A DNA stretch of 64,000 bases from a virus (Duplodnaviria; Heunggongvirae; Uroviricota; Caudoviricetes), in the IMG/VR virus record IMGVR_UViG_2648501802_000002. One strand, given 5' to 3'. Both the position numbers and the translations under genes were made by a program. Positions within the stretch are counted from its first letter, which is position 1; each line of letters starts with the position of its first letter. Of the stretch, positions 13,313 to 60,552 are shown piece by piece. The notes under the pieces were generated by a model, which did no database searches, was not told where the DNA came from, and saw only the letters and a list, made by a program, of their open reading frames with translations.

Positions 13313-14011
13313 AGATTGCTTTAGTTTTTCGCTCTGGTGGTGACTATAACGCTTCCGATGTGCAGTGGCTGGTTAATCAACTGCCAAAAGGCTATGAAAT
13401 TATTTGCCTGACAGACCTGAAGCGTTTACATGTACCTGGCGTCAAAGTTGTCCCATTGATCAACCAGTGGCAAAAGTGCCGTGGCTGGTGGGCGAAAATA
13501 GAGTTGTTCCGACCGGATATAACCGATGATCTGTTCTATCTGGATTTGGACACGGTTATTGCCGGTGATATACGCCCAATCCTAGAGCATCCACCAACCA
13601 GCTTCACCATGCTTAGGGATTTTTACCATCCACAATATCGTGGCAGCGGTGCCCTGTGGATACCAAATAGTGTTAAAGCGCATATCTGGAGTTCATTCTG
13701 GCAAGATCCGGAAGGTTGGATTTCTCGTTGTGTCACTACTGAGTGCTGGGGGTGACCAGGGGTTCTTACGAAAGGTTATGGGCGATGATACACCAGCATT
13801 TCAGGATCTGTATCCAGGATGGTTTGTAAGTTACAAGGCCGATGTTGTGGAACCTGGTTCAAAATATGCGAGCGCGCGTTACTCCAGGGGGAATGGGGCA
13901 TTACCAAAGGACTGCCGAATAATCTTTTTCCACGGCAAACCGCGACCTCGCGAAGTGTCAGAGGATTGGCTTCCCCTTATCAGCTCGTTTTTTGAGCGAG
14001 AATCAGAATAA
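13309..14011 (+). pseudogene. glycosyltransferase-like gene split by a +1 frameshift at a G5 tract
   Basis: ORFs 13309..13755 and 13640..14011 overlap in different frames; G-run 13748-13752; removing one G by hand joins ...ECWG to DQGFLRKVMGDD; LDLDTVIAGD is DxD-like. Confidence 0.5.
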
Positions 14012-14032
14012 TATTGCTCTAATAATTCCATA

Positions 14033-14098
14033 TTTTTAAAACGTGATGTACACTCATCAAGTTTTTTATTAGAGCAATCTACAGGGTGCACTATGTGG
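14033..14098. promoter_or_regulatory. pair of C1-operator-like sites in inverted orientation
   Basis: 14033-14049 ATTGCTCTAATAATTCC and 14082-14098 TTTTTTATTAGAGCAAT, each with a perfect 13/14-nt core. Confidence 0.55.
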
Positions 14099-14311
14099 CC
14101 ATTCCGACGGAAATATCACTACTGGCTGATCGCCTTTGTTACGCCGACCGGCAGTATCAGGCATGTCATCACCAGGTATCGCAACAAGAGACTCACCTTA
14201 GCCAGAATTTTACAGGCTGCCATAGGTGAGGGATTGGATACAAATTGCGTAGTCCTTCCTCCTTCATACTTAGGAAAAATGACCGAAGCACAAGCTAATA
14301 CGGAACTTTGA
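14093..14311 (+). CDS. hypothetical small protein
   Basis: 72-aa ORF just after the operator pair; start uncertain. Confidence 0.25.
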   Translation: MWPFRRKYHYWLIAFVTPTGSIRHVITRYRNKRLTLARILQAAIGEGLDTNCVVLPPSYLGKMTEAQANTEL

Positions 14312-14312
14312 A

Positions 14313-15665
14313 ATGAGCACTTCAGCACAAAACCAATCAATCGAAAATGTATCTATCCCTGATGTCCTGAATGCCGGTATCCCGGCCATTATCCAGAACA
14401 TCCGGGCCGCGCAACGCCGCGTTAGTTGTGATGACCTCACAGCACGTTTTTTTGATAATGCGGTTCAGTCAGCGGAGATGCTTCACGCACAGCTTATTGA
14501 TGTTTATAACGCAGAAGCTGATAGCCATAACTCCCTGGTAGATGCAGCTGAAAATATGCAGTTGGATCTCGGTCTGAAGGGTAAAGAAATTGAAGAGCTT
14601 CAGCTGCAAATTGAACATTTGAAACGCCAGCAACAGGACGCGATCGACGATGCGACGCATGACGCCAACCAGCGTGCTGATAATGCCGAACGTATAAGCA
14701 TTGAGCTGGAAACAAAACTCAATGAAATGACCGCGATGGTTGAACTGCGGAACTCACAGATTTCAACGCTAAAATCTCAATATAAAGAGATCATGAAACT
14801 TGATCCTTTTAACCTTGAGAAACGCTATAACAAAGCTAAAAGCGAGCGACAAGAACTGCGTAAGCAGGTCGCCGACCTTAACCAACAGCTCAAAAAAACT
14901 ATTAAAGATGCAAGCGAAGCGCGCGTGGCATTTGCTAATAAAAAAGCAGAGGTTACCGCGCTGGTTAATGAGAATGCCAAATTTGCGACGCTCAAGAAGG
15001 AAATGTATGGCATTACTGAGCGCCGTTTCCCTGCAAGCAAACTTCATCCGACGTTAGGGCAAATCTCCTTCTTCCCGCGCCTCCTGGCTTATGGGATCTC
15101 ATCGCCTAAAGAGTTCAATAACGAGCGTCCTTATATCGTTTCTAAGCTGGACTTTGCTTATCAGTTCTGCTGCGACATGGGCTATGCCATTGATATCCGA
15201 ATCAACGAATGGTTGATGCCAAACTTCCAGCCGTTGGCAATTTTCCGCGAGTTCCAGCCGGAAGGTTGGGTAGAGTTCTTCCATGAATTGATCTGTAAAG
15301 AGATGGAAAGCCGCCGCCCGGAATTGGTCCGTCGAGTTGAGTGGGCGCAAGAGGTTATGTTGGCAGATGCAGAGCTGCCGTTCGAACCGGAATTCATTGA
15401 TGATCTGGCAACTAAAGGGTTGCATACCCTGTTTGATGTGGTTACCCGCCGTCATGAGCAGTTGGTTGTCGAATTGGGTTTAGAGGAAACAGCGGCAAGA
15501 AGACTTCTCGATGTTTGCTATGCACGTAGCGATGCATGGGAAAAAGAGAACGGCGGCACTATTTTACGTTCGCTGATAGTTACAGTGTCACTTTTAATGC
15601 TGGTGGAGTGCGCCCACCAGCATTTTTTTCGTCCAATGAGGAGGGCATTTGAGTATTTTCAATAA
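14313..15665 (+). CDS. coiled-coil hypothetical protein
   Basis: 450-aa ORF with a long Q/E/K-rich heptad-like stretch. Confidence 0.35.
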   Translation: MSTSAQNQSIENVSIPDVLNAGIPAIIQNIRAAQRRVSCDDLTARFFDNAVQSAEMLHAQLIDVYNAEADSHNSLVDAAENMQLDLGLKGKEIEELQLQIEHLKRQQQDAIDDATHDANQRADNAERISIELETKLNEMTAMVELRNSQISTLKSQYKEIMKLDPFNLEKRYNKAKSERQELRKQVADLNQQLKKTIKDASEARVAFANKKAEVTALVNENAKFATLKKEMYGITERRFPASKLHPTLGQISFFPRLLAYGISSPKEFNNERPYIVSKLDFAYQFCCDMGYAIDIRINEWLMPNFQPLAIFREFQPEGWVEFFHELICKEMESRRPELVRRVEWAQEVMLADAELPFEPEFIDDLATKGLHTLFDVVTRRHEQLVVELGLEETAARRLLDVCYARSDAWEKENGGTILRSLIVTVSLLMLVECAHQHFFRPMRRAFEYFQ

Positions 15666-16403: not shown

Positions 16404-16419
16404 AAAAACACGAATTGGG

Positions 16420-19658: not shown

Positions 19659-20870
19659 TTAATTACTGACAGTTTCAGGTTTCGGGAAACTGAACAGTAA
19701 ATCACGGTAGTACTCGTATTGTTTCTGGCGCAACTCGATTTCACGCGGGAGACCTTCGGTGATGGAGTTGGTCAGGGTGTCGAACTTATCGAGGATAAAG
19801 GCAATTTTTTGTTGCTCATCAATCGATGGTAAAGGAATAGATAAACCATCAATGTTATTTGCTTTAAGATAACCTTGCCCTGAATTGTTTTTTACTGACT
19901 TAAAGTAAAATTTCATTCTTGGTGAGTCGAAGAAATGCAGAAAATATCTAGGGTGAAGTAATTCCTCATTCAACCTGATTAGGTACATGTTTTGACCGTA
20001 AAAATCAGGATCGAGACATTTTACTCGAGCAATCTCACCAATAGTACCAATCATGCTTATAAGAAAGTCACCTTTCAAGATCGGTCTATTTTTGGAGATG
20101 CTCAAAAAATCGTCCCGGGAAATATGCTTAACTCTTTCAAAATCGATGTTCCCACCACTAATATTCTTTGAAGTGACATATGGAATTTCACCATTATCAT
20201 CAAACTTCGGAGTTGCGGGCATAATCCAAAATTTATCTACTAGCACCTCCTCCAAAGTCTTCCACTCAACCTCACCCTCTTTAAAACTCAACAACTGGTC
20301 GCGATAATAGTTGTACTGTTTTTTACGCATGTTAAGCTCAGCGGTAAGCTCAGCGGTAAGTGCAGTAAATTTATCCAGAATCCGAACGATTTCAGACTGG
20401 ATGGCAAGGGATTTTTCCGGATTATCCGGGCAGGGGATTGGGATTTTTTTTTGAGAATAATTACTAATCCATTGGCGTTTATGGTCTCCCTCTGCGAATT
20501 CACTTGGTAATGTATTGAGCCAATAGTAAACATATTTCAGTAAGGTTTTATTATTATCACATGATGTAACCATTTTCATGGCCGATGATTTTGCCTTAAA
20601 GTCAAAATCCACCCATTTATTAGCGGTGGTGAAATCATCAAAAATTATTACAGGTGCCTTTGATGCCTGGTAAATACCATGAGTCTCATTTGTGTATCCA
20701 AGAATAAATGTTTTTCCGGCAGTAAGAACCGGTATGGTATATGTGTCGTGATAATCTTTTGCTTTTACCAAATACTTTGTTGGCTGTTCATATTTGGTTA
20801 TTTCCCCCAATGGCAACCACTCAACTTCAACCCCATCCAGCAATTTTTCCAGATAACTCAACTCGCTCAT
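19659..20870 (-). CDS. hsdS: Type I restriction-modification S subunit, EcoR124-like central region
   Basis: 403-aa ORF; central ...[23 protein letters not shown]; 4-nt overlap with hsdM. Confidence 0.85.
20335..20358 (-). repeat. 12-bp tandem repeat (2 copies) encoding TAEL-TAEL in hsdS
   Basis: AGCTCAGCGGTA twice on the + strand, then a degenerate third unit. Confidence 0.85.
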
Positions 20871-22429
20871 TTCTGCACCTCGCAGCCTTCAATTTCAGCC
20901 ACAATCGCATCAATATCTTTACGCAACTGGTCGATTTTGCTGACCGTGGTTTTCAGCTCAGCATTTAGCTCAGCAATATCGATAGTTTCGCGGTTATCTT
21001 TCACTTCTACATAGCTGCTCACTGACAGGTTATAGTCATTCGCGACAACGGCCTCAAACGCGACAGATTTTGCCAGATGGGCAACATCTTCCTTGCTGGA
21101 AAATACCTGCATAATTTTTTCGATATGGGCATCGGTCAGGATGTTGTTGTTAGTCTCTTTTTTGAACAGTTCGCTGGCGTCAATAAACTGAACTTTGGTA
21201 TCCGTTTTATGTTTAGACAGCACCAGAATATTTACGGCAATGGTGGTGCCAAAGAACAGGTTCGGTGCCAGTGAAATCACGGTTTCGACATAGTTATTGT
21301 CAACCAGATACTGACGGATTTTCTGCTCCGCTCCGCCACGGTAAAAAATGCCCGGGAAGCAGACAATCGCAGCACGACCTTTGGCAGAAAGATAGTTCAG
21401 CGCATGTAATACAAACGCAAAGTCAGCTTTGGATTTGGGGGCCAGAACGCCAGCCGGGGCAAAACGTTCATCGTTAATCAGCGTCGGGTCATCGCTGCCA
21501 ATCCATTTCACCGAATACGGCGGGTTAGAAACGATGGCATCAAACGGTTTTTCATCTCTGAAGTGCGGCTCAGTCAGTGTATTACCCAGCTTGATATCAA
21601 ACTTGTCGTAGTTGATGTTGTGCAAAAACATGTTCATACGCGCCAGGTTATAGGTCGTATGGTTGATCTCCTGACCAAAAAAGCCTTCTTCGATGATATG
21701 GTCATCAAACTGTTTTTTAGCCTGCAACAACAGCGAACCGGAACCTGCTGCCGGGTCGTAGATTTTGTTAACGTGGGTCTGGCCGTGCATTGCCAGTTGT
21801 GCAATCAGCTTAGAGACGTGCTGCGGTGTAAAGAACTCGCCGCCGGACTTACCGGCATTCGCCGCATAGTTAGAAATCAGGAACTCATAGGCATCACCGA
21901 ACAGGTCAATCTGATGTTCGTTGAAGTCACCAAGGTTTAACCCTTCAACCCCTTTCAGAACCGCAGCCAGGCGGGCATTTTTATCCTTAACGGTGTTACC
22001 CAGGCGGTTACTGGTGGTATCGAAATCAGCAAACAAACCTTTGATGTCAGCTTCTGAAGGATAACCGTAAGCAGAACTTTCGATAGCAACGAAGATGCTG
22101 TTTAAATCTGCATTCAGTCTGTCATTGGTATTTGCTTTCGCCGCTACGTTGCAGAAAAGCTGACTTGGGTAGATGAAGTAGCCTTTGGTTTTGATGGCAT
22201 CGTCTTTAATGTCATCAGTAATTACGCTGTCATCCAGTTTCGCATAACAGATACTGCCATCACCGGCTTCAATATAGCTGGAAAAATTTTCGCTGATAAA
22301 ACGGTAGAAAAGTGCGCCCAGAACGTATTGCTTAAAATCCCATCCATCGACCGAACCCCTGACATCGTTAGCAATTTGCCAGATTTGACGATGAAGCTCT
22401 GCACGTTGTTGAATACTTGTCATTTTCAT
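20867..22429 (-). CDS. hsdM: Type I restriction-modification M subunit (N6-adenine methyltransferase)
   Basis: 520-aa ORF with NPPY motif in [14 protein letters not shown]. Confidence 0.9.
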
Positions 22430-22574
22430 CCACTTATTTCAGGCTTATGTAATTGGATGTGATTCTACAACAACTTGGTGGCTTTAACAGTTCGGACATT
22501 AGGCTATGAATGACCTGCCTAGAGTTTTGTTAAGCCGCAAAGTGCTGGCGCTTTATGCCTGTGAAGTTTATAAT

Positions 22575-22597
22575 TGTGTACACATAACGAGTACACG
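22575..22597 (+). promoter_or_regulatory. phd-doc promoter/operator palindromes
   Basis: TGTGTACACA perfect palindrome at 22575-22584 and GAGTACACG half-site just upstream of phd. Confidence 0.55.
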
Positions 22598-22605
22598 AGG
22601 TGTTT

Positions 22606-22827
22606 ATGCAATCCATTAACTTCCGTACCGCGCGCGGCAACCTTTCTGAAGTGCTCAACAATGTTGAGGCCGGGGAAGAGGTTGAAATCACCCGCAGAGG
22701 CCGTGAGCCAGCAGTAATTGTCAGCAAGGCTACTTTCGAAGCCTACAAAAAAGCGGCGCTGGATGCTGAATTTGCATCCCTGTTTGACACCCTGGACTCC
22801 ACCAACAAGGAACTGGTTAACCGATAA
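22606..22827 (+). CDS. phd: antitoxin Phd
   Basis: 73-aa product [20 protein letters not shown]... recognised as P1 Phd; the track ORF starts at an upstream GTG (22600). Confidence 0.9.
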
Positions 22828-23207
22828 TGAGGCATATATCACCGGAAGAACTTATTGCGCTTCATGATGCGAATATAAGCCGCTACGGCGGCCTGCCTGG
22901 CATGTCAGATCCGGGCAGGGCAGAGGCCATTATCGGGAGAGTTCAGGCCAGAGTTGCCTACGAAGAGATCACCGACCTTTTCGAAGTCTCCGCCACCTAC
23001 CTGGTGGCTACAGCGAGAGGGCATATATTCAATGATGCCAATAAGCGTACCGCGCTAAACAGTGCGCTGCTATTTCTACGCCGTAACGGGGTGCAGGTAT
23101 TTGATTCACCTGAACTGGCAGACCTTACCGTAGGCGCTGCGACTGGCGAGATATCTGTATCTTCTGTCGCCGACTCGTTACGTAGATTGTATGGTTCTGC
23201 GGAGTAG
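22827..23207 (+). CDS. doc: toxin Doc (Fic-fold kinase)
   Basis: 126-aa product [22 protein letters not shown]... recognised as P1 Doc; ATGA overlap with phd. Confidence 0.9.
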
Positions 23208-23211
23208 ATTA

Positions 23212-23391
23212 ATGGCACGCAAATACGACAAATTGTCCCGTGAAGCGTTAAAGATGCTTCTTGATGGCGTGAGTCGCCGCAAGGTAAAGCAATACCTGGT
23301 TGGTAAGCAAATTGGAGTCAGGACCGCTATTGCTGTGTTATGCCGTCAGGAAATGGTTGTGCTTAAACAGAGAATGCCGGGCAGCAGATAA
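23212..23391 (+). CDS. small protein downstream of doc (PdcA position)
   Basis: Internal ATG 5 nt after the doc stop; MARKYDKLSREALKMLLDG... Confidence 0.35.
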   Translation: MARKYDKLSREALKMLLDGVSRRKVKQYLVGKQIGVRTAIAVLCRQEMVVLKQRMPGSR

Positions 23392-23418
23392 AGCCCAATC
23401 AGTGATTAAAGGTGTGAT

Positions 23419-24462
23419 GTGAAAGCCATAATTACTCCCTTTGTACAGAAAGAGCTTGGCCTCGCCACGTTCAAAGTGGATCAGGAGGTCAGAAAGCTGG
23501 TGGAGGCTGGCCGTAAATTTATTATGGAGCCGGTGCCGCGTGAGTTAATCGAGCACATGGAAGACGGCCTCGTTGTTACTGAGCAAACCATGGCAACAAA
23601 TGAGGCGTTGCAGCCGTTTTTTAACAGCGATGAACTGTTTCGCCGTATTGGTGGAATTGACGCGCTGGTTGCGTGGTTGCGTAGGAAAGAGGGTCAATGC
23701 CAGGCCGCAGATCGTAGTTGGTGTGACAACCATATTGTCCACGCTGAACGAGACAATAGCGCGGTGTTGTTGTGCTGGCATCACGATAACCATTACCGGA
23801 TGCGTGGTTTTAATGAGCTGAAAGAAACGCTGCACAATAATCGCGTTAACTGGATACTGGATGTCGCCCGTCAGGAAATGGGCCTTTCAAATAGCCATGA
23901 TTTAAGTATTCAGGAGCTGTGCTGGTGGGCTTTCATGCGCAACATGATGCACCTGATGCCGGAAGAAGTCTGCCGCATATCAATAAATAAGATGAAGGCT
24001 ACTCCGCAGGATAGTGGACCTCTGAAAGAGGCGGATATTCGCCCGTATGACGATCGCGCTACAGCATATGTTCAGATGATGGAAGAACGCGCCGCGCCGA
24101 TGCGTGCAAAAGTATGCCCTGTGGATGTTGACTCCGACCCTAGCATGGCGCATTTCAAAATACCAAAACTTCAATCGCTAAAATTGCCTGAGTACATGGA
24201 TTTTGTGGCTTCCCGTCCATGCTGTGGCTGTGGAGCTGCGGGAGCTGGCGCTCACATTACGCCTTATATCGTTCGTCATAGTCGATTATGCGCGCATGAC
24301 ATTTATGCTATTCCTCTGTGCCAGTCATGCCAGCGTGATATTGAGCGTGACCGCGATAATTGGGAGAAGACGCACGGTAGGCTGGCGATGCATCAACGAT
24401 TGTTCTTTGATTACGCGCTTGGAGTCGGCGCTATCACAAGTCATTCGTCGAGCGTTAGATAA
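23419..24462 (+). CDS. hypothetical Cys/His-rich protein (PdcB position)
   Basis: 347-aa ORF with several CxxC/H clusters. Confidence 0.35.
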
Positions 24463-24463
24463 A

Positions 24464-24480
24464 ATTGCTCTAATGCATTG
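24464..24480 (+). promoter_or_regulatory. C1-operator-like site (14/17) upstream of lpa
   Basis: ATTGCTCTAATGCATTG. Confidence 0.45.
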
Positions 24481-24550
24481 CTATTTCTTTAATCGATGGT
24501 ATTATATTCGACGTTGATTAGTTGACATGGGCTAATCAGTAGGTGACAGG

Positions 24551-25003
24551 ATGTTACTTAACTGGCAGGGACGCCACTTCATGGAAATAAATCACTCACG
24601 AATAACATCGTACGAGATTGCGGATTACATGATCCGCACTAAATCTCTTCTATCAGCGAAAGAACTCGCAGCAATTCTTGAAAAGGAATACCCGCATCTG
24701 GATGTCGATAAGCGCGATGTTTATCTGCGCTTAAAGGCTATCGCTGTGTCTAAGTATTCGTCTGTTTTGATTGATGACAGTACACGCCCACGTAGATTTC
24801 AGATCCACTCTCTGAATCCTGAATTCTTTCGCCGCAGCCGCGCTCCGCGCCGGTTTGATGAAAAACTCCAGAACGAACTCTATATGACGCAGGACGAAAA
24901 GGAACGCCGGGAGCACCAGCCTTGGGTAATGGCGCGTCAACTTTTCAATAAGGTGGCCCGTCAGCACCGTCATTACGGTAATGCCACATCCGCACGTATC
25001 TGA
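24551..25003 (+). CDS. lpa: late promoter activator-like protein
   Basis: 150-aa ORF immediately upstream of pacA with an operator-like site in front, as for P1 lpa. Confidence 0.5.
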   Translation: MLLNWQGRHFMEINHSRITSYEIADYMIRTKSLLSAKELAAILEKEYPHLDVDKRDVYLRLKAIAVSKYSSVLIDDSTRPRRFQIHSLNPEFFRRSRAPRRFDEKLQNELYMTQDEKERREHQPWVMARQLFNKVARQHRHYGNATSARI

Positions 25004-25088
25004 TTGATTGCTTGCCCGTTCCGGGCCTTTTGACATGTGACTTTCGTTACCCTCGCGTCAAAAAGAGTTTTTACGAAAGGAAGCATAA

Positions 25089-28125: not shown

Positions 28126-28347
28126 GTGGCTACTATCCCTACCCCAGCTCATCCTGAATTTATCTGGCGCTTTTACTCCTGCCAAAAACGTCACTATCAC
28201 TTCGTTATTGCACCGACAGAAGATGAGGCACGTTCTCAGCTTCCGGATGCTCCCTGTATTTTCTCTGCCCGCTTTTCTACCGATTCGCGCAATTCTCTCA
28301 GTTACTGGTGCCTCCCTGTTAACGCTTCTGCTCAGGAGGGACTATGA
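28126..28347 (+). CDS. small protein upstream of and overlapping the antirepressor start (Icd-like position)
   Basis: 73-aa ORF with GTG start and AAAGGAGG RBS. Confidence 0.35.
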   Translation: MATIPTPAHPEFIWRFYSCQKRHYHFVIAPTEDEARSQLPDAPCIFSARFSTDSRNSLSYWCLPVNASAQEGL

Positions 28348-29446
28348 GAACGTCATTAGTCACCCGTGAAGAGATGATCGAGGCAATTGAACAGCACACT
28401 GCCTGTATCAGTACCAGGGATATACCGGGCGTTATTGCCAACTACTTCATGATCACCAAACAACTTTACCGGAGAAAGGACAAATACGCGGTTCACCGCA
28501 TTCTGCTAACCGATATCCGTGAATACCTGCTCGAACAGGGTCATCTGAATTACGCAACCGTCGCAGCCGAAGCACGCAAGGAGGCACACAGAATGAAAGC
28601 AACTAACGTTAAATCAGAAAAAATTTATGCACCTTCAGTTCAGGAATCGGAACTGGTGGTTGTTCAGAATCAGCCGGATGAAATTCCCGTTCTGGAATGG
28701 CAGGGAGTACGTGTCGTGACAACCGAAACTCTTGCTAGAGGGTATGGTGTCGATGAAGCCAATATTCGCAACAATTTGTCTCGCAACCTTGACCGCTTTG
28801 AAGAAGGTAAGCATTACTTTCTTCTAACTGGTTTAAAATTAAGAGAATTTAAGAACAGAGTAACCGGAAGTTACTCTGTTGGTAAGAACGCCAGAAGCCT
28901 TACACTCTGGACAGAGCGCGGCGCTGCACGCATGTCTAAGATCGTGGACACAAATGAAGCATGGGCATTCTTTGAAAAACTGGAAGACAGCTACTTCCGG
29001 CAAAAAGAACAGCAACCGGTTGCAATCCCCCAGACGCTTCCAGAAGCTCTGCGCCTGGCTGCCGAACTGGCTGAACAAAAGAACAGAAAGCCCACCAGCT
29101 AAATCAGCAGCTGGTGGCCGCCGCTCCTAAAGTCGATTTTGCCGACCGGGTATCAGTAGCTAAAGGGATCCTGATTGGGAATTTTGCAAAGGTTGTTGGA
29201 CTTAAGCAAAACGCGCTGTTTGCCTGGTTACGGGAGAACGGCATCCTGATAGCGTCCGGTGGACGTAAAAATGTGCCGTTCCAGCAGTACATCAATGCGG
29301 GGTATTTCACGGTGAAAGAAGTGGTGCTGGATGATGAAGATGGCTACCAGATACGGTTGACGCCTCAATTAACGGGTAAAGGCCAGCAGTGGTTGACGCG
29401 TAAACTGCTCGATGCTGGCTTGTTAAAACCGGTGGCGGCTGAATAA
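28344..29446 (+). pseudogene. antirepressor (N-terminal domain + KilA-C-like domain) split by a frameshift
   Basis: ORFs 28344..29102 and 29114..29446 in different frames; one extra A in the A4 run at 29077-29080 fuses them by hand into about 367 aa. Confidence 0.5.
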
Positions 29447-29478
29447 TGGAAGAATGCCCGGTTGATGCCGGGCATAAT

Positions 29479-30330
29479 TTATTGCGCGCTTTCGGGGTTG
29501 TCGTTTACTGGCTGCCCCTTCTTGGTTTTACGGCTGCGCGTAACTGATGCGGCTGACTTAACCTTTTTCTCTTCGCGAGTGATGGCAATTTGTTTTTTTA
29601 CATTTTCAATATCTGCCAGGCGATATATTTTTGCTTGCGGCCAGCGGTCGCAGATGATCGGTTCTATAGAGTCATAAAGGCTAAATTTTGCTTTCTCGAA
29701 TTCACCGTTGATGATGATTCCATCACGGAGAGTTTCATCGCAGATAAACACGCCACACAGCGGTACATGGTAACTAACTGATTTACCATCATTGTAGTTA
29801 GGGCTACTGGAGATGTAGTGGACGCGCAGCATTGTTTCGCTAAAGCCGTGTACACGCATACGGAATTTTTCATCCTCCGGGTACTGCCTCATTAGCTCTT
29901 TTGTTGCTTCCAGGTTCTCTATGTATTTCGCACTGTGCTCATTGATCCCCGCGCTTTTTTGGATGCGAATGTCCTTATCAATCAGATGAATAATGCGGCC
30001 AGCGGTCATGTTGACGCTGTTCACAGCTTCTGTCTGATAAGTTGTAACCTTGCGCACACCGCGAAGGATGTTAGGCACTGGATATAAAATAGTCTTTGGG
30101 ATATTGAGGTCTGGGTACTGTTCCAGTTCCCGCGCCATTAAAGTCCATTTATCAATTTCAGCCTGAATGCTGTCAGTTTCTTTGAACGGTAGAACGACAA
30201 CCGGGCGTACAGGACGACCGTCGCTGGCTGTATCAACGTGTTGGGCGCGTGCAACAGCTTTTTTTAGAAAGAGATCCCTGAAGCTGACGAACTCCTGGTA
30301 CAGTTGTTCGCCGTAGACATAATTTATCAT
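29479..30330 (-). CDS. c1: C1 repressor of lysogeny
   Basis: 283-aa ORF, size and N-terminus as remembered for P1 C1; coi directly upstream; operator-like sites flank the operon. Confidence 0.75.
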   Translation of the reverse strand: MINYVYGEQLYQEFVSFRDLFLKKAVARAQHVDTASDGRPVRPVVVLPFKETDSIQAEIDKWTLMARELEQYPDLNIPKTILYPVPNILRGVRKVTTYQTEAVNSVNMTAGRIIHLIDKDIRIQKSAGINEHSAKYIENLEATKELMRQYPEDEKFRMRVHGFSETMLRVHYISSSPNYNDGKSVSYHVPLCGVFICDETLRDGIIINGEFEKAKFSLYDSIEPIICDRWPQAKIYRLADIENVKKQIAITREEKKVKSAASVTRSRKTKKGQPVNDNPESAQ

Positions 30331-30423
30331 TGATCCTCCTCCAGAATTGACATGGTCAATAACGCCCGGCTGAGAAAACCGGTCATTACTGACCTATATT
30401 ATAGAGGGATCAAACAAAAATAA

Positions 30424-30440
30424 TAGATTTATTAGTGCAT
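30424..30440 (-). promoter_or_regulatory. C1-operator-like site (14/17) between coi and c1
   Basis: AGATTTATTAGTGCATT. Confidence 0.4.
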
Positions 30441-30650
30441 TTATTGTGAGTCCAACTGGTTAGTTGCCATGAGATATTCGATTGTGTCAGTGAGGTCATC
30501 CAGGTCGTCTTGGGTGATGCGGTACTCCTGATTGGATATCTTTGAGTAGTGTTCAGCAATGGCGCGGGCAGCGTCGGTTTCGGCAGGGTCTACAGATAAA
30601 GCGTTAGAGCAATGTCTAACGTCGTCGATGGTTGGTTGAATGAAAGCCAT
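30441..30650 (-). CDS. coi: C1 inactivator Coi
   Basis: 69-aa ORF immediately upstream of c1 on the same strand. Confidence 0.65.
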   Translation of the reverse strand: MAFIQPTIDDVRHCSNALSVDPAETDAARAIAEHYSKISNQEYRITQDDLDDLTDTIEYLMATNQLDSQ

Positions 30651-30888
30651 AATTATGCCTCACTGTATTGACAACACAGAGCCTGAAGCTCTGACCTACT
30701 GTTTCACCCATGATCCATGCTGGGGTAATCTAACAACATTGCGCTGTGTGTAAGATGAGCAATGCATAGCTGTAATGCCGTTGTATAAGGTTTCCCTGTT
30801 TGCTCATTTCCTTCTGAGCCGCTCTACAACGCTGAAGACACATTAAATAGTGAATCCAAAGTCGTATTACGAAACGGCGGCAAAACTA

Positions 30889-30905
30889 TAATTTATTAGA
30901 GCAAT
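30889..30905 (-). promoter_or_regulatory. C1 operator (16/17) upstream of coi-c1
   Basis: TAATTTATTAGAGCAAT. Confidence 0.6.
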
Positions 30906-30959
30906 TGTCAAACAACTATGAAAAACAATCCAGTTTTTGTTTGATATTTATGGTGACAT

Positions 30960-31271
30960 ATGAGAAAGGATTTCAACATCGACGGAAAATATGTAGTGCT
31001 GTCTGTAAGCACTAATATTCAGTCGCCAGCCGTCATTGTCACTGTAAAGCTGAGCGATAGAATGCCTGATATTGACTCAATATCCGTTGCGTTCCCTGTC
31101 AAAAGTATGCGTGGTGCTGAACATTTCGTGATGAATGCCACCGAGGAAGAAGCACGGCGCGGTTTTGCTAAAGTAGTGTCTGACTTTGGCGAACTCTTGG
31201 ATAAGGTTAACAATGTCCTTTCAATCAGTTCAGCAAGGTCCAAAGCGTTAACAGCTTCCATGATGAAATAA
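30960..31271 (+). CDS. hypothetical protein
   Basis: 103-aa ORF. Confidence 0.3.
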   Translation: MRKDFNIDGKYVVLSVSTNIQSPAVIVTVKLSDRMPDIDSISVAFPVKSMRGAEHFVMNATEEEARRGFAKVVSDFGELLDKVNNVLSISSARSKALTASMMK

Positions 31272-31398
31272 AAAAAGCCTGGCAAGGAACCAGGCTGCAC
31301 AAAAGAGCGGGTTTGTGTTCCGCATCCAATCAATCAGAAAGGAGTATAGCACATAGATACTAAAGTGAAAAAATGTGACTGAAGATAAACAATATAAC

Positions 31399-31415
31399 AT
31401 TGCTCTAATTGATTG
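31399..31415 (+). promoter_or_regulatory. C1-operator-like site (14/17)
   Basis: ATTGCTCTAATTGATTG. Confidence 0.4.
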
Positions 31416-31619
31416 TTATAATTGAGCCGTGGCGTTAGTCAACTACGAAGACGTGGCCATTACCTACTTAACCAGTTCCGCCAGGGCAGCAGAGTAGGTT
31501 TCATCTCGGATGTACCATGCCTGCATGTTTTCCAGAGAAGCCCGCGAGGTTCCCGGACAGGACTCTGCCATTGCGATAGATTAAATGCAATAACCTAAAA
31601 GCGATAACGTGGTGGAAAA

Positions 31620-32259
31620 ATGTTCATCAGAGCTTATTTAAGGGCATCAACGGAAGATCAGTTTGCCGATCGGGCAAAAGAGATGCTGGGGCAGTTTGTT
31701 CAGGAGCGGGGACATAAAATAGCCAGTTACTACCGGGAGAACATAAGCGGTACAAAACTCGACCGCCGGAACTGGGACGCTTACTGATGGACAGCCACCG
31801 CAATGATATTTTACTGGTCGAGCAAATTGACCGCCTGACCCGTCTGAGTAACAGTGACTGGATTACGCTGAAAAAGCAGATAGAACAACACGAACTGCGG
31901 ATTGTCGCCTGGATGTATCCACCTCATGGCAGGCGCTGTCAGATAAAGACCCTTCGCAGGCTGACCCAATCACCCGCGCCGTGATAACCGCCATCAATAA
32001 CATGCTTATCGACCTGATGGCCGCGATGTCGCATAAGGACTGGCTGAGCCGTCGCCAACGGCAACAACAGGGAATTGAACGGGCTCATACGCTGGGTAAA
32101 TACCGGGGATAACAGGCCGATCAGGAACGGCATCAGAAAGTCCTGTACTACTGGCAGGTCAAGAAACTAAGTATCCATGAAACGGCAGATGCGACAGGGT
32201 ACAGTCCTTCACAGATATGCCGCATTCAAGCCCTTTATAGAGAGCCTGAATCGGAATAA
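31620..32259 (+). pseudogene. serine recombinase (resolvase/invertase family), decayed
   Basis: Starts MFIRAYLRASTEDQ (catalytic Ser motif); two single-base losses in C-runs (about 31762 and 31908) and an in-frame TAA before the C-terminal HTH. Confidence 0.6.
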
Positions 32260-32365
32260 AAAGTAGCCCAGGCGTTAATGGATTACCTTTCCAGGCTAAG
32301 CTCATTGCTCCTGTCAGATACGCAGCCCTGCCTGTAATAATACAGACTGGGCAATGTGTTGCCAC

Positions 32366-32767: not shown

Positions 32768-32775
32768 ATTGCACC

Positions 32776-33765: not shown

Positions 33766-33780
33766 GCCATGGCCTCCGGG

Positions 33781-35162: not shown

Positions 35163-35240
35163 TAAATATATTATTTTTAATCTTAAATGATTGACAACTG
35201 ACAAGTGACTTGAGTCAGAATCATCACACGCCCGGTACGG

Positions 35241-38434: not shown

Positions 38435-38467
38435 ATTATGCGACGCCCGGCGAACCGGGCGCTCCTG

Positions 38468-41400: not shown

Positions 41401-43287
41401 TCCGGCAGGAAACGATAGGTGATCCGGCGATAGTACAGGTCCATGTCAGTACATACGCGGTCCATATCCCTGATTATTGAGAAGATCGGACGGGCTTTCT
41501 CGTGCTCAATCACGCCGTCTTCATTGACCGAGGTCATTACGCCATTGTTGGCTTTGGCCGCCGCTTCCGCCTGCTGACGCAATTCTTCATACGCCGCCAG
41601 TTGTTCTTCAGTAAGTGGTGCATCCTGCTGGTGTTCGTCCAGCTCCGGGATCTCCACGGTATCCTTAACGTCTTCCGCCGTTTTAAGCGTTACCCAGCGA
41701 TGGAATATACCGCGCAGCGCATCAACCCGACAATTTCGCTATAGGACCGCGACCAGGATTACCAAAGCGGTCAATCTCTGCCTGCAAACGGGATACCAGA
41801 GAAAGGCGCTGCTGTTCGATTTGTTCAGCACTATGCCCGGCGGCCTTCATATCCTGATATTCAATTAACATCCGGCCAATCATCGCCCCGCGATACAAGC
41901 GTTCACGGTATTTTTCAGGCTGGCTGTTAATCCAGTCCACCAGCTGCACCATATCGTCGCTGATTGATGTGGTGTACTTATCGCGGACATTTGCCATCTG
42001 GGTAAATGTCATGCCGAGACGGCCTTCTGTTGTAGTCAGGTTACGCTGAAGAGCCTCCCAGCTATCCGCGCCATAACTGGCAGCATCGATCTTAAGTTCC
42101 TTCCCGGCATCAGCTTCAATCCAGCGACCACCAGCATATTTTTGCCATACGCCATTAATCAGGCGCATTTCCCCTTCACCAACAACGTCTGCGGTCGGTG
42201 ACGGTTCAGCCATATCGAGCAAAGACCAGTCGATACGGCTTTCGAAACGATGAATCAGCTTCGCTTTAAGAGCCTGGTTATCAATCTGACCGTCGGCACG
42301 AACCTCAATACGCCCCTGGAAGCCCTTTTCCTGGGTGCCATGAACAAACCGGCGGCCATCCTTTTCAAACCACTTGCCAGAAATAAACGTTGGCCAAAGC
42401 ACATTTGCCGATTCAAGAGTGCTTTCATCCACCAGGGGGATTTTCTCAGCCATCTCTGCCGGATGTTTGCGCATCAGCACCACATCAACGACTGTACTGG
42501 TCCCGTTTGCGTCAAAAGTACCGGTAGGCAAGCGGTGAGCGCCAAGAAATTCAGCTTTACGGGATAAGCGCAGGCGTAACCGCTTCATGTTTGAACCTGA
42601 AACAATGGACGGCGGCACAATCACGCACATGAATCCGCCTGGCTTTATCTTGTCCAGCATGCGGAGCATGAAGTAAGAACCCATGTCCGTTTCTTCTGCG
42701 TAAGGCTTATCGATGTTGCGTGTGTTATCACGACCGCCGAACGGAACGTTACCCACAACATGGTCGAATGAATCGTTAGGCGTGCTTATAGCCAGCTGTT
42801 CGAACGGGGAAATCTGTACGCTGTCTTCCGGGTGTAACAACTGGTTTATACGACCGGAAACACTGCTGATCTCAGTCGCGGTCATCACCGTACCAACCGG
42901 TTTTGTCTCATTAAAAACGCCGGTTCCCGCCGATGGTTCCAGAGTGTTACCTACGTCCGCGCCGTAGAGCTTCATGATCTCCCAGACACCTTCAGCGATC
43001 GGCTTTGGTGTGTAATATTCGGAGACGGACCCGCCAATGCCGCCTTCACCGGTGTACCCAGCCAGGATCTGGCGCTGTTCATCTGTCAGTGTCGCGCCGT
43101 CCACCAGCGAATTAAGCAAATCTATCGCCTTCTGATTCGCCTCCCGGCGCAGTCGGTCATAGCTTTTGCCTTCCACCTTTTCCACGCCGTATTTAATCGG
43201 CGCTCGGTGAGATGTTATTGCCCTAATGTATTTCAATATTTCGCTGACACTTGAACAGCAAAACACCCCCATAAATAGCTTGTTCAT
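38468..43287 (-). pseudogene. DarB-like N6-adenine methyltransferase + helicase-C fusion gene, in three ORFs
   Basis: ORF 41722..43287 has methyltransferase motifs (EPSAGTGVF, GNVPFG); ORFs 41058..41657 and 38468..41110 carry helicase C-domain motifs (KQIIFTDE; AQRNGRGAR); junctions at an A7 tract (41101-41107) and a 1-nt shift near 41722-41738. Confidence 0.55.
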
Positions 43288-43353
43288 TGGTAATCCTTAA
43301 CAAGTGACTAGTGTTAAATTCCGTTCAAACACGATGCGAATTATTCTAATTAA

Positions 43354-45084
<1,731 letters not shown>

Positions 45085-46359
45085 ACGGCAAACATTCCCA
45101 ATTCACAGAGTCCGACCTAAACCACATGAAGCGGCTTAGGAATTACAGACTCTCCAAGGGCTAACACTGCCAGCCCGGCAGCTTTTATATTACGGGCCGC
45201 GTTAATATCACGATCATGCTCTGCGCCACATTCCGGGCAGTGCCATTTACGAATATTAAGAGGCATTTTTTGCATGGTGAAGCCGCAACTGCTGCAACGT
45301 TTGGAAGAAGGGAAATACTGGTCGATAGCGACAATGCTACGTCCACCCCATTCTCCTTTGTACTGGAGTTGGCGTACAAGTTCGCTCCAGCCTGCGTCAG
45401 CTATTGCTTTAGACAGCTTCGGGTTACGGATCATGTTTTTCACTTTAAGGGATTCGACGCAAACAACTTGGTTTTCGTTAATCAGTTTGCGGGACAACTT
45501 ATGCAGGTTATCCATCCGACAATCGACTATTCTCGCGTGGAGGCGGGCAACCTTTAAACGTGCTTTGGCGCGGTTCTTTGAGCCTTTTTGTTTCTTGCTC
45601 AATCTGCGCTGTAACACTGCTAATCGCTTCGCGTATTTAGCGTTGTGTCGAGGATTGCCAGTTTTAAAACCGGTATCGGTGACGAACAAATCTTTTAAAC
45701 CAATATCAATGCCGACCGTGGAAACGGTGATCGGCAGTGATACAGGCTCAAACTCGCAGAGACAGGATACAAAATATCGTCCGGCAGCATCCCTGGTGAT
45801 AGTGACAGTGGATGGAGCAGACGGCAACGGACGGCTCCAGCGAACATCTAACGGCTCTTTGCTCTTTGCCATGTACAGCTTGCCGTCACGGTATTTAAAT
45901 GCGCTGGCAGTTAGTTCTGCGGCCTGTTTATGCCGCTTGCTCTTAAAAACTGGGTATGCAGCACGCCCGGCGAAAAAGTTAGCAAAAGCCGTTTGTTGGT
46001 GGCGCAGAGACTGCTGGAGGGGGACGCAGGAAACGTCATTCAGCCAAGCGAATTCTGGTTCTTTTTTCAGTGCCGTTAATTTGGCGCTGGCTTGTGCATA
46101 GCCGACCCTCTCATGGCGTGCGTAGTACGCATCGGTGCGCCAGCGAAGGAGGCTGTTATAGACAAAACGCACACACCCAAAAGTCCGGGCTAATAGCTCG
46201 GTTTGTTCGGGAGTTGGATAGAATCGATATTTATAGGCACGCTTCATGTTCTATATAATACATTGAAACTAATGAGTATATAAATGAATACACGGACGAA
46301 AATGTTATCAAAGCCAATATACCAACAGACATTAGGTAAGGTAGCTGGAGGGCAATATA
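45085..46359 (-). mobile_element. tnpB-only IS200/IS605-type element between portal and protease genes (ends not defined)
   Basis: TnpB ORF fills the intergenic space; no tnpA ORF adjacent. Confidence 0.5.
45117..46247 (-). CDS. tnpB: IS200/IS605-family TnpB (RNA-guided endonuclease)
   Basis: 376-aa ORF starting MKRAYKYRFYPTPEQ, with C-terminal zinc finger CSSCG...CPECG. Confidence 0.85.
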   Translation of the reverse strand: MKRAYKYRFYPTPEQTELLARTFGCVRFVYNSLLRWRTDAYYARHERVGYAQASAKLTALKKEPEFAWLNDVSCVPLQQSLRHQQTAFANFFAGRAAYPVFKSKRHKQAAELTASAFKYRDGKLYMAKSKEPLDVRWSRPLPSAPSTVTITRDAAGRYFVSCLCEFEPVSLPITVSTVGIDIGLKDLFVTDTGFKTGNPRHNAKYAKRLAVLQRRLSKKQKGSKNRAKARLKVARLHARIVDCRMDNLHKLSRKLINENQVVCVESLKVKNMIRNPKLSKAIADAGWSELVRQLQYKGEWGGRSIVAIDQYFPSSKRCSSCGFTMQKMPLNIRKWHCPECGAEHDRDINAARNIKAAGLAVLALGESVIPKPLHVV

Positions 46360-49761: not shown

Positions 49762-50550
49762 GTGGAAAATACTAAAGCAATTCAATACCGCCTGCGTAAT
49801 GGCCAGAGTGTCGAAGTGACCATCAATAATGATGGTGTACCTGGCGAAAAGGTTTCTATCTCTGATCTGGCTATCGAAAAAACCATCATGTGCCACCTTG
49901 GCTTTACTGAAGAAGTGAGCAAAAAGCATGGTGTAGCTATCTGGCGAACAATGGATACTGGCATGCGCAGATTCATTACCGCTCGTACCCCAGGTATGAC
50001 CATGATGGACCTCATGCAGATTGCGCCGCTGTTTGAGTGTGAACCTTTGGATGTATTCAGCAATCCAGCTATCTGCCAGCAGTTATATGGTGAGATGAAA
50101 CTCGCGGTTACCCCCATTGTGCTGCATGAAGGATCGCTTGCTGGCGTATGGAAAGTAGAGCGAATTTCAAGCTATATGCCCTTCCACATCCATGTCAACG
50201 GCGTAATCGCAGGTGAAAATCAACCTGTTTCAGTTACAAAGTCAGACCTCAAGCGCGCAATTCTTGAAGCAAGTTGTCGAGTTATCGGCCTGGGCAAACA
50301 GTCTTATGTTTTCTTCCCGGCTGGCCCTGAAGGCCCGGCAGAAATTCTGATTATGGATGCCGATCTGCTCTGGCAAATACAGTTTCTGATTGGCAAAAGC
50401 ATCATCCGCGCTGAAGAACTCGATCAGTACATTACCTGCACGATGACGGATGAAGTCAAAAGTGTGGCTATAGCCAATGCCCGGAACCTATGTCGTGCTG
50501 CATTAACAGAACTGCAAGAAAACACCACGGAAGAAGTGGAAAGCGATTAA
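49762..50550 (+). CDS. hypothetical protein
   Basis: 262-aa ORF. Confidence 0.3.
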   Translation: MENTKAIQYRLRNGQSVEVTINNDGVPGEKVSISDLAIEKTIMCHLGFTEEVSKKHGVAIWRTMDTGMRRFITARTPGMTMMDLMQIAPLFECEPLDVFSNPAICQQLYGEMKLAVTPIVLHEGSLAGVWKVERISSYMPFHIHVNGVIAGENQPVSVTKSDLKRAILEASCRVIGLGKQSYVFFPAGPEGPAEILIMDADLLWQIQFLIGKSIIRAEELDQYITCTMTDEVKSVAIANARNLCRAALTELQENTTEEVESD

Positions 50551-50552
50551 AA

Positions 50553-50580
50553 AAATCCCGCCGATTGGCGGGATTTCTTC
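50553..50580. terminator. bidirectional intrinsic terminator
   Basis: Stem ATCCCGCC/GGCGGGAT with A7 upstream and T-rich downstream; between convergent genes. Confidence 0.6.
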
Positions 50581-57620: not shown

Positions 57621-58455
57621 GTGCGCCCAGCATGGGCGCGATCTTGGAGGTGAAAGCCCTCCCGCGAGCTGACCACAGCGAGCGAAAGGAAGTGCAACTG
57701 CGTGAGGGCGGCTAGGCGTGGGGAGGAAGCACGGAATGAACCCGTGAGCCGATGAACAAGAATCGGATATGAGGCGCGATGGAGCAAGGCGAGCAGGCAC
57801 ATCACTGCGAAGCTTTCGTGACAAAGTCGCGTAGATCCGACGGTTGTGCGGGGAAGGATCGCGTTCTTACCTGGGGAGTTCTCGCCTCATGCCTGAAAGG
57901 GCAACGTCGTAAGACGGAGCGAGAAGTCAGCAGAGGCCGTAGTAGTCAGGACTCCGACGAAGGGCCGAACGAGAAGGAAAGCCAAAAGATATGACTCTTG
58001 ACAGGACATTGCGTCAGAAGCCGGGGAAGCCCGGTACGGACCCGCATGCCGGGTGGTGTGGCAGGGGCGCAGCCTTGTGCTCCCCCCTATGCCGATCAAG
58101 CAGAACATTGTGCTGGGCCTCTGACGCATCTCCTTGATGGTCTTGGCATCGTGCTTAAGTGGATTGGTGTCGTCTCTGATAGGCTCATGGAGGCAGAATG
58201 AAACTCAAAAATCCGGGACAGCACGCAAAACAGGCTGCACAAAAAGCGCAGGTTGCGTAGGAGTGGAATCCCGCTCCCAAAAAATGGTGCAGAAGTTGCG
58301 GCAGTGGTCATCCGACGCACTGGAAAATAACAAACCCGCCGTGACCAGAATCGGAGGCCTGAGGGAGTGACCGTAAAACCGGATAACCCAGGCAGCAAAT
58401 ACCCGCTGGATGAGGCATGGTTCCGGCAGATAATACCGAAAACCGCCAGACACAC
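57621..58455 (+). ncRNA. group II intron 5' segment, ORF-less or 3'-truncated
   Basis: Begins GTGCGCCCAG (GUGYG 5' consensus); GC-rich with no long ORF; ends at an abrupt drop to AT-rich sequence; no domain V identified. Confidence 0.55.
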
Positions 58456-58516
58456 TGGATAATCAGTAGAAATAACCCATTAAAATCATTATAATAATTG
58501 GGCACATTATTATATT

Positions 58517-59080
58517 ATGCTGAATAATAGAGACATGAATATTAATGAACTTAAAGACTGTATTCACTATGAAGTAATCGGTAGCGAGCGTCCTTTCTCC
58601 TGGCGAAAGGCAATTGTTCGCGCAATAAAACATAGAAGAGTTCGTTATTTATTTTGGTGGCGCATAGCCAAATACCTTTTTGATAAAGGCGGATACTGTC
58701 GGAAGATTGCGGGGAAAATGGAACGTTTCATTCTTGATAAATATAGTGTAACAGTCCCTTTAACTGTAAATATAGGGAAAGGCTTTGATATTTCTTATCT
58801 CAACGGTGTTGTTATCGGTCACAAAGTAACCATTGGTGAAAATTGTTCAATAAAACCAGGGGTAACTATTGGGCTACGTGGTGATTTTAATGATATGGAT
58901 ATTGTTATAGGACATAATGTGACCATTGGTTGTAATGCCACCATTCTTGGTGGCAAAGTGCGTATAGGAAACAATGTCACAATAGGTGCTCATGCATTGG
59001 TATTGCATGATATTCCTGATGATTCAACATTCATCACTAAATTTCAGTCTGAAGTTATCTGCTCGTCCTCTTGCACATAA
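58517..59080 (+). CDS. hexapeptide-repeat (left-handed beta-helix) acetyltransferase
   Basis: 187-aa ORF with repeats [14 protein letters not shown] / [15 protein letters not shown] / [15 protein letters not shown]; AT-rich; 3' end overlaps the convergent U gene. Confidence 0.65.
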
Positions 59081-59661
59081 CCCTGATTCATCAGCTCTGG
59101 CCATACGATATCCGGAGCTGTACTGGTGTCAATTCGACTCACTAATACTCTGTATTTTCTCCAGGAATCCAGTTGTGAATTTTCCTCGGTTGTTGCTATT
59201 TCAAGATTAACTGCATCCTGCAGAATTGCGATGTTATCTGTTGCCTCCTGAATCAACCTTGCCTTTTTCTCTTCCGCTTCCCGTATCCGAAACAGTTTTT
59301 CTGCTTCCTCATCCTTCACCCAGGATACGCCGTCCCACTTCTGATACTCCCCTGCTGGCGACAACCAGGTGACATTCTCTGGTAACGGTCCGAGTTCAGA
59401 AATAAACAACGCGTCCCCCGATGCCACGTCATAGACCGTTTTACCACGATGGTCTTCAACAATAATCCATGATTCATTTTCACTGTTAAAAACTGCCACA
59501 AAGCCAGCAGGAATTTCCGGTGGGGCGATATCTGTAGAATTAGCTGGTAGCCCTGTATGAGGTGGAATATATGCGTCACCTTCACCAATAAACTCATTAG
59601 TTCCGGCGAGCAGGTTATAAATTTTTACAGTACGTGATTGTTCACTCATTCTGAATGCCAT
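59044..59661 (-). CDS. tail fibre assembly protein (U/Tfa-like)
   Basis: 205-aa ORF directly downstream of the receptor-binding fibre gene with ATGA overlap. Confidence 0.6.
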
Positions 59662-60552
59662 TATGCAAGCCTCACAATATAATTAAATGCGATGTTTTTA
59701 ACGGTGTTTTCCGAGTTACCAGCAGCGTTAACGGTGATGGTGTGTCCATGTGAACCAATCGCAACAGAGTGCGTATGAGCGCCAATATCAACTGTATGTG
59801 CATGCGCCCCTGCACTTGCAGCGGTGCCTGATACTGAGTGGGTGTGTGCACCAGAAGAAGGCACAGTTCCATTCCCCACCACAGTGCCGCTTGATGAGCC
59901 ATCAAGCCAGTCGAAATTCATACCGCCACCATCTGGTCTCCTTAATGGAACGGTATGAGTATGTGCGCCAGCACTATTTGCAGTACCAGATACATTGTGG
60001 GTATGTGCACCTGTGTTATTCGTTGATTTAGTACCGTAATCAAACGAAGATGTGGTTTTCGTACCCAAATCCGTATTGGATGCGCTGGCGCTGTGGGTGT
60101 GCGATTTAATGCCATCCTGTTCCAGAGACAATACGTCCCGACCACTGGCGGGTTTGCCCTTGATTGTCCAGCCACGCATATCCGGGATCACGCCTGACGG
60201 ATAAGCGGCTGCAAGTTTCGGGTATGCAGATTTGTCAAAAGTCTGTCCCTGCATCAGGGCGTAACCAGACGGCACAGTATCTGATGGCCACGGATGCGGA
60301 ACACCAACAGGAAGGACCTCAATATCCCCGGAACCATCAAACGAAACGTTATTAATTTTACGGGCTGTTTTCAGCTTTGTAGCCGTTGAGGCATTGCCGG
60401 ACAGCTCACCAGAAATGCCACCAACAACTGTTAGATCACCAGTTATTGTGCCGCCTGAACTTTCCAGTTTTTTAGCAACATCACTCTTAATAGAGTCGAT
60501 TTCTTTTTTTCAGATTAGTTATATCTGCTGGTATCGTTGTCACTGTTGCCAT
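59661..60552 (-). pseudogene. receptor-binding tail fibre gene with frameshift at an A7 tract
   Basis: AAGGA RBS + ATG at 60552 gives [16 protein letters not shown] then stop; removing one A from the run at 60504-60510 by hand gives a continuous frame of about 297 aa into ORF 59661..60275 (GAHTH repeats). Confidence 0.55.

Follow-up and report, generated by a model that had tools for sequence, protein, structure and literature searches.

Private one-base run-length changes in a P1-like phage-plasmid are probably consensus errors of a long-read-only assembly

Why are several unrelated genes of one phage-plasmid interrupted at short mononucleotide runs? The question is raised by a 64,000-nucleotide stretch of DNA (the window; IMG/VR virus record IMGVR_UViG_2648501802_000002), which is a P1-like (IncY) phage-plasmid whose gene order and 97-99% identity match P1-like plasmids. 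An earlier note, made from the letters alone, had described four genes broken by changes in such runs, taken these genes to be accessory, counted a recombinase pseudogene as part of the same pattern, and offered assembly error or slipped-strand mutation as the cause. The runs lie where that note placed them: G5 at 13748-13752, A4 at 29077-29080, and T7 (A7 on the coding strand) at both 41101-41107 and 60504-60510. Run-length changes indeed break the genes at 13748, 41101 and 60504, but not the gene at 29077, which is broken by a 10-bp deletion. Two further +1 changes are missing from that first list: one affects the gene of a tail protein (6382-6387), the other the 3' end of pmgS (15562-15565).

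Each of the five changes is a single-base difference within a mononucleotide run (at 6387, 13752, 15565, 41101 and 60510), each is +1, and each splits or alters a gene. At 6382-6387 (minus strand; C6 on the coding strand), the window has G6 where 80/80 relatives have G5, and the gene of a 338-aa tail protein (phrog_1390) is split into ORFs 6312-7205 and 6188-6478. The G5 at 13748-13752 (plus strand) is G4 in 73/73 relatives, and L340-L342 and L344, which are close relatives, are without the extra G as well; because of it, a 233-aa protein (phrog_1962, named 'glycosyltransferase') stops at residue 148, and ORFs 13309-13755 and 13640-14011 are left. At the end of pmgS (15562-15565, plus strand), T4 stands in place of the T3 of 70/70 relatives, which swaps the last residues and gives a product of 450 aa (ORF 14313-15665) instead of one of 420 aa. 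Inside darB, T7 at 41101-41107 (minus strand) is T6 in 90/90 relatives, the top E. coli RefSeq matches listed are all one base shorter, and the gene is split into ORFs 38468-41110 and 41058-41657. The second T7, at 60504-60510 (minus strand), is T6 in 10/10 relatives with an identical U protein and in L006. It interrupts, at codon 16-17, the gene of a short tail fibre of 296 aa, which has its ATG at 60552 and leaves a downstream fragment at 59661-60275. Cin-mediated inversion at this tail-fibre site was considered and rejected, as the lineage is without intact cin and has a fixed R-S-92aa-296aa-U module. With a tail protein, a PmgS-like head morphogenesis protein and a tail fibre in the set, the affected genes are not simply accessory ones.

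The shorter run is found in every relative compared, and the +1 changes are missing also from the closest relatives, which carry the same HsdS or Ban alleles. None of the five was found in independent assemblies of related elements. As to Ban, its look-up returned a single mosaic relative (L344), with the same ban but diverged elsewhere. When one base is taken out at four of the runs, the resulting proteins match alleles on other contigs with 100% identity. Three of them, among which are the 338-aa tail protein and the 233-aa protein, have such matches on at least 1000 contigs each, and the 296-aa tail fibre has them on 5. The frameshifted products of 297, 252, 521 and 450 aa have no exact match in the gene-position index, an absence that pseudogenes without product in NCBI records likely account for. 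The 148-aa truncated product is a pure wild-type prefix, and its exact look-up led only to genes that are truncated where their contigs end.

Such run-length changes are rare among the relatives of this plasmid. Across 314 relatives' loci (3.74 Mb aligned), 30 rare indels were counted in runs of at least 4, and 287 of the 314 loci had no such indel. The expectation is ~0.4 per 47 kb, and the window has 4 in its scorable 47 kb and one more outside. The clustering of frameshifts at runs that the earlier note had pointed out thus exceeds the background. The private changes of the window also include 131 substitutions beside the 4 indels; many of these substitutions are clustered and look recombinational.

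Two other lesions turned out to be of a different kind. The junction at 29077-29081 (plus strand) adjoins the A4 run and lies in a KilAC/Ant antirepressor gene, which is split into ORFs 28344-29102 and 29114-29446. The difference at 29081 is not a single base within a run: among 51 IMG/VR relatives aligned at this place, nearly all have 10 extra bases (GCAGCTTCTG). The same deletion is matched without gaps in the isogenic sibling assembly CP007394.1 (L343, L345) and in an independent contig (L340, GCA_020977525.1), and since two other assemblies share it, the deletion is real. Judged from these shared junctions, the deletion has been passed on in a lineage of plasmids and did not arise by a homopolymer slip. 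The second lesion is a serine recombinase (resolvase-type) pseudogene of the cargo island (31620-32225, plus strand), which was followed through its ORF fragments and three-frame translations. It has frameshifts at ~31765 and ~31930 and an in-frame TAA at ~32110, and the first frameshift is a lost C, with CGCCGG where CGCCCGG is expected. The pseudogene shows no indel differences from an E. fergusonii plasmid (L338) and a FDAARGOS E. coli plasmid (L339). Because the recombinase is broken identically in two independent plasmids, its lesions are real, inherited, and a phenomenon separate from the +1 sites, and it drops out of the homopolymer pattern. Both of these real lesions are ordinary for mobile elements.

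The source of the window provides a further line of evidence. The frameshift-extended 450-aa PmgS is AHM48203.1, which is carried by a single record only, the 4,998,910-bp E. coli ST2747 record. Other window proteins have paired accessions of the AHM43xxx and AHM48xxx series, and some also have AHM52xxx accessions (5.05-5.09-Mb contigs); the lineage-specific DarA and a 405-aa tail protein have no match in the gene-position index, although the cluster collection contains both. One study reported three genomes of ST2747 (5,054,424, 4,998,910 and 5,090,326 bp), a parent and two in vitro-selected derivatives that came from three stepwise platings on nitrofurantoin (PMC3983296). They were sequenced on PacBio RS II with C2 chemistry at ~28x and assembled with HGAP, and ~14 scaffolds were put in order to give a gapless chromosome; the description mentions no polishing with short reads (PMC3983296). 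Through AHM48203.1 and the 4,998,910-bp contig, the window is therefore linked to an error-prone technology without accurate-read polishing. The 4,998,910-bp record was built from one PacBio RS II SMRT cell and its scaffolds were then concatenated, and this ordering and concatenation of ~14 scaffolds explains a plasmid inside a chromosome record.

The isogenic sibling CP007394.1 was compared with the window over ~25 kb, away from alignment ends. There are no substitutions between the two and six run-length differences (7224, 8942, 15565, 27794, 35042 and 47410), so indels stand far above substitutions between these replicate assemblies. At 15565, the window has T4 and CP007394.1 has T3, with no substitutions around, and the relatives side with CP007394.1; the +1 change of the window is not reproduced in the isogenic assembly. 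At the other five differences, all or nearly all relatives side with the window. CP007394.1 is without the segments holding 6387, 13752, 41101 and 60510, and the direct comparison covers 15565 only. On the 5-Mb contig of another isogenic sibling (sibling A), a search for the 296-aa tail fibre in its repaired form found no copy. The direction of the changes deserves a separate remark. The sibling's five private changes are all -1, whereas the window's five are all +1, an opposition that speaks against error as the cause.

Homopolymer error is the best reading of these data, because the changes are private, the sibling differs by runs and not by substitutions, and repair restores known alleles. 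It is highly probable, on the comparison of assemblies, that the five +1 changes (6387, 13752, 15565, 41101 and 60510) are consensus errors of a long-read-only assembly rather than mutations of the DNA. The case is direct for 15565, and we infer that the other four sites would share its cause. A PacBio consensus at ~28x would occasionally miscall the length of a mononucleotide run, and a miscall inside a gene would read as a frameshift. Between the two origins proposed earlier, error is thus favored at the true homopolymer sites, where the changes are private and +1, the assembly is unpolished, PacBio-only and ~28x, and 15565 is not reproduced; the proposal does not hold for 29077.

The rival that survives best is that the frameshifts are real slipped-strand mutations, and that a defective P1-like plasmid is decaying under relaxed selection in its tail, head, anti-restriction and immunity genes. 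The ant 10-bp deletion, confirmed in other assemblies, and several kb-scale deletions on the plasmid are lesions beyond homopolymer miscalls and make real decay not implausible; the private indel-to-substitution ratio, ~4:131, is also near the neutral mutation ratio. Three such kb-scale deletions were located. Offsets against L003 and L004 place a candidate 1952-bp internal deletion of darB at 41711-41725 (~41724, minus strand), which shifts the frame, leaves an upstream fragment at 41722-43287 and involves no homopolymer event. Its junction 31-mer has no exact match in ~340 fetched loci, IMG/VR and GTDB representatives, and the junction is spanned by 0/578 E. coli records. Between c1/coi and c8, cra and cre (~1.6 kb) are missing; offsets against L004, L338 and L339 give a candidate deletion junction at 30937-30938 (plus strand), whose 31-mer has no match in all fetched loci. 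In the tail-fibre gene S, a 1587-bp deletion with its junction at 60771-60772 (minus strand; 10/10 relatives are longer by 1587-1611 bases) joins S, at about its codon 461, with the middle part of a 92-aa gene, so that S is truncated (ORF 60726-62153). The record of isogenic sibling A (5,054,509 bp), however, encodes a full 966-aa S (WP_077769110.1) and an intact 92-aa protein (AHM43534.1); as the S deletion is missing there, even kb-scale lesions may stem from the assembly. Furthermore, decay fits poorly with a sibling that is six run lengths and no substitutions apart and does not carry the +1 at 15565, with genes that, once repaired, match widespread intact alleles at 100% identity, and with five changes that are all +1. 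We therefore regard real decay as the source of these frameshifts as unlikely.

The drug used in the selection suggests another source of mutation. Nitrofurans are mutagenic, and nitrofurantoin is a DNA-damaging nitrofuran. The frameshifts and deletions could then be real mutations induced during selection of the derivative strain, since the ST2747 trio is a parent with two derivatives from three platings (PMC3983296) and neither sibling agrees with the record that contains the window. But at a rate of five frameshifts per 64 kb, the whole genome would have gained several hundred in three platings, base substitutions relative to the sibling are absent over ~25 kb, and the sibling's own five private -1 changes resemble consensus error. 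Nitrofurantoin mutagenesis as the general cause is very improbable. There is a slim chance that some private lesions, namely the +1 changes outside the sibling's coverage and the cre, darB and S deletions, are real in the nitrofurantoin-selected derivative; if this were true, a few platings on a DNA-damaging drug would have been enough to disable a phage-plasmid.

That several genes are broken exactly at mononucleotide runs might also recall phase-variable contingency tracts, or sites of programmed frameshifting, by which phage genes are switched on and off, an idea that is hardly tenable against short ancestral runs (T3, G4, G5, T6 and T6), when contingency tracts typically have 7-8 or more units in their functional state, against length variation at these runs in 0 of 70-90 relatives, and against single intact ORFs (338, 233, 420, 2255 and 296 aa) in every relative, which mean that a two-ORF arrangement is not conserved.

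If homopolymer error is the right account, the 4,998,910-bp record would carry about one run-length error per 10 kb, and the five sister records probably carry such errors too. Frameshifted genes, pseudogene counts and readings of an "integrated P1" taken from this record are unreliable, because of the run-length errors and because a plasmid was concatenated into the "chromosome". The main value of the present analysis is such caution. One published study already assigns the c8-mat cargo segment to CP007393.1, the 'chromosome' record of E. coli ST2747 (PMC6906374).

Compared with known systems, the +1 sites resemble errors of long-read-only bacterial assemblies, in which one-base run changes split intact genes, are private, and are not reproduced in an isogenic assembly. 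The sequencing itself, PacBio RS II C2 at ~28x with HGAP and without short reads, is of a kind known to leave residual errors. A difference is that the five changes proposed as errors here are all insertions, whereas those of the sibling record are deletions. Contingency loci likewise have genes broken at mononucleotide runs; here the tracts are short and invariant in relatives, and no on/off arrangement is conserved. Relative to P1, the window is without cre, its darB and S genes have lost internal segments, and a type I restriction-modification system stands in place of EcoP1I; part of these differences may come from the assembly. The closest likeness in organization is to the P1/P7-type phage-plasmids (Punavirus, IncY), for example pJIE250-3, with the same gene order and 97-99% identity; pJIE250-3 also has the same c8-mat cargo block, with regulators and a putative resolvase (PMC6906374).

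The frameshifts clustered at mononucleotide runs in this phage-plasmid very probably stem as an artefact from a PacBio assembly made at low coverage and left unpolished, and the cluster is most likely not a biological feature. The earlier note had described four genes broken at such runs and offered assembly error or slippage as explanations. All four runs are present (13748-13752, 29077-29080, 41101-41107 and 60504-60510) and the clustering of frameshifts does exist in the given sequence, with assembly error the likelier of the two options, but not every listed lesion is a run event. Alignment to close relatives identifies +1 run changes at 13748 (G5 in the window, G4 in relatives), 41101 (T7 versus T6) and 60504 (T7 versus T6), whereas the lesion at 29077-29081 is a 10-bp deletion in the antirepressor gene that the A4 run merely adjoins. 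Two further +1 run changes were absent from that list: a tail protein gene has G6 instead of G5 at 6382-6387, and pmgS has T4 instead of T3 near its end, at 15562-15565.

To what extent are these changes private to the window? A total of 320 P1-like IMG/VR loci, fetched with four anchor proteins, were piled onto it, and private changes were counted in the roughly 47 kb covered by at least 20 relatives. This portion holds 131 private substitutions and four private frameshifting +1 insertions, at 6387, 13752, 15565 and 41101, the extra base being absent from 80/80, 73/73, 70/70 and 90/90 relatives, respectively; the 10-bp deletion is also counted among its changes, and no private -1 change was found there. 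At 60504, a region with few IMG/VR relatives, T6 occurs in all ten contigs encoding an identical U protein. The closest relatives, L340 (a contig of GCA_020977525.1 found via the shared HsdS, 99.2% identical over 21 kb) and L344 (a locus found via the shared Ban), do not carry the extra bases either. Across 3.74 Mb of relatives' sequence there are 30 rare indels in runs of at least four bases; since about 0.4 would thus be expected per 47 kb and 287 of 314 loci have none, the window is a roughly ten-fold outlier. A similar excess is seen in one other P1-like contig, IMGVR_UViG_2617271072_000004 (loci L024 and L310), with eight private run-length changes, mostly insertions, and this contig too probably comes from an error-prone assembly. 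Near the G run at 13748, at least 19 contigs assembled from short reads of unrelated samples (including loci L008-L017) stop 0-3 bases past the run (...GCTGGGGTGA; window 13753-13755), which may result simply from the way the exact-product look-up selects contigs, or may mark a recurrent assembly-graph branch in P1-like plasmids.

The sibling E. coli ST2747 assembly CP007394.1 (5.09 Mb) provides a direct comparison, its two loci (L343 and L345) overlapping about 25 kb of the window. With alignment ends left out, the two sequences differ by no substitution and by six run lengths, at 7224, 8942, 15565, 27794, 35042 and 47410. Six indels and zero substitutions between isogenic strains bear the signature of consensus error and not that of mutation. 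At every differing run except 15565 the sibling is one base short, and all or nearly all relatives share the window's run length; at 15565 the window has T4, and CP007394.1 has T3 like the relatives, so that the +1 is directly seen not to be reproducible. At 6387, 13752, 41101 and 60510 consensus error is only inferred, because the CP007394.1 copy lacks the segments holding these sites. Six co-linear segments of 0.4 to 9.8 kb are missing from that copy (465-7060, 10011-14426, 19797-25017, 29457-32107, 35246-45014 and 50120-50556). The copy, at 2.13-2.17 Mb, adjoins lambdoid tail genes on one side, where only short fragments are called, and the surrounding region looks badly assembled.

At the four sites other than 15565, the changes could represent real decay of a defective plasmid, a reading against which speak the sibling comparison, the fact that the run changes are all insertions, and the otherwise perfect state of the affected genes. 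Removing a single base at 6387, 13752, 15565 and 60510 yields proteins of 338, 233, 420 and 296 aa from otherwise undamaged genes, 100% identical to alleles on at least 1000 other contigs for each of the first three and on five for the last. Mutation induced by nitrofurantoin is very improbable, as the genome would then have to contain hundreds of frameshifts and not one substitution. The short, invariant tracts and the single intact ORFs of the relatives exclude both phase variation and programmed frameshifting.

Assembly error is also what the origin of the record leads one to expect. Exact-sequence look-ups of lineage-specific window proteins return two or three parallel accession series (AHM43xxx, AHM48xxx and AHM52xxx), found on contigs of 5,054,509 and 5,090,442 bp, and the frameshift-extended 450-aa PmgS occurs only as AHM48203.1, on a single 4,998,910-bp contig. 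Xavier et al. (2014) described three E. coli ST2747 genomes of matching sizes, from a stool isolate and two nitrofurantoin-selected derivatives, each sequenced on one PacBio RS II SMRT cell with C2 chemistry (~28x) and assembled using HGAP in SMRT Analysis 2.0, with no mention of short reads (PMC3983296). According to a passage in PMC8812927, homopolymer-length errors usually persist in long-read-only bacterial assemblies; run-length errors are therefore expected here. For each strain, an in-silico map served to arrange about 14 scaffolds into a "gapless chromosome" (PMC3983296), which accounts for a P1-like plasmid inside a chromosome record; its apparent chromosomal location in the 4,998,910-bp record is probably concatenation, not integration. 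A chromosomal location of the cargo segment is also cited in PMC6906374.

Three kilobase-scale gaps have junctions seen only in the window. Relative to all relatives, cra and cre (~1.6 kb) are missing at 30937/30938 and darB has a 1952-bp internal deletion at ~41711-41725, both with clean junctions; a 1587-bp deletion at 60771/60772 truncates tail-fibre gene S and the following 92-aa gene. The 5,054,509-bp sibling has an intact 92-aa gene (AHM43534.1) and a full 966-aa S (WP_077769110.1) carrying the window's own two substitutions, and the S deletion either came about in the derivative strain or results from an assembly dropout. Together with the six segments missing from CP007394.1, such kilobase-scale discrepancies among isogenic records suggest that assembly dropouts may be involved.

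Other lesions are real. The 10-bp antirepressor deletion is an allele circulating in this lineage, since it is present, gap-free, in CP007394.1 and in the unrelated draft assembly GCA_020977525.1. The serine-recombinase pseudogene (31620 to ~32225), interrupted by two frameshifts and an in-frame TAA, has no indels relative to an E. fergusonii plasmid (L338) or an FDA-ARGOS E. coli plasmid (L339); both have the same broken frames, and it is therefore an inherited part of the cargo block, which has been described as including "a putative resolvase" (PMC6906374).

All searched parts of the window are 97-99% identical to P1-like (Punavirus, IncY) phage-plasmids from E. coli and relatives, and RefSeq E. 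coli, PLSDB and INPHARED contain no identical record. About 1 kb present in L004, a related locus, with a DNA polymerase III theta homologue (hot) and an S24 peptidase (humD), is missing at 22520-22535. The cargo block (31463-37745) encodes the resolvase pseudogene, a SnoaL/ester cyclase, an AraC-DJ-1 regulator, an MBL-fold hydrolase, an EAL protein and a second AraC regulator; it is common to 37 PLSDB plasmids at ≥80% coverage and matches the segment described for pJIE250-3. The IS200/IS605-type TnpB gene (45069-46348, minus strand, 376 aa) is shared with the sibling assembly and lacking in most relatives. Gene order is as in P1, from which the window differs in having a type I R-M system in place of EcoP1I, an ash/icd/KilAC-antirepressor module adjoining c1, the cargo block between c8 and mat, and the TnpB element between prt and pro.
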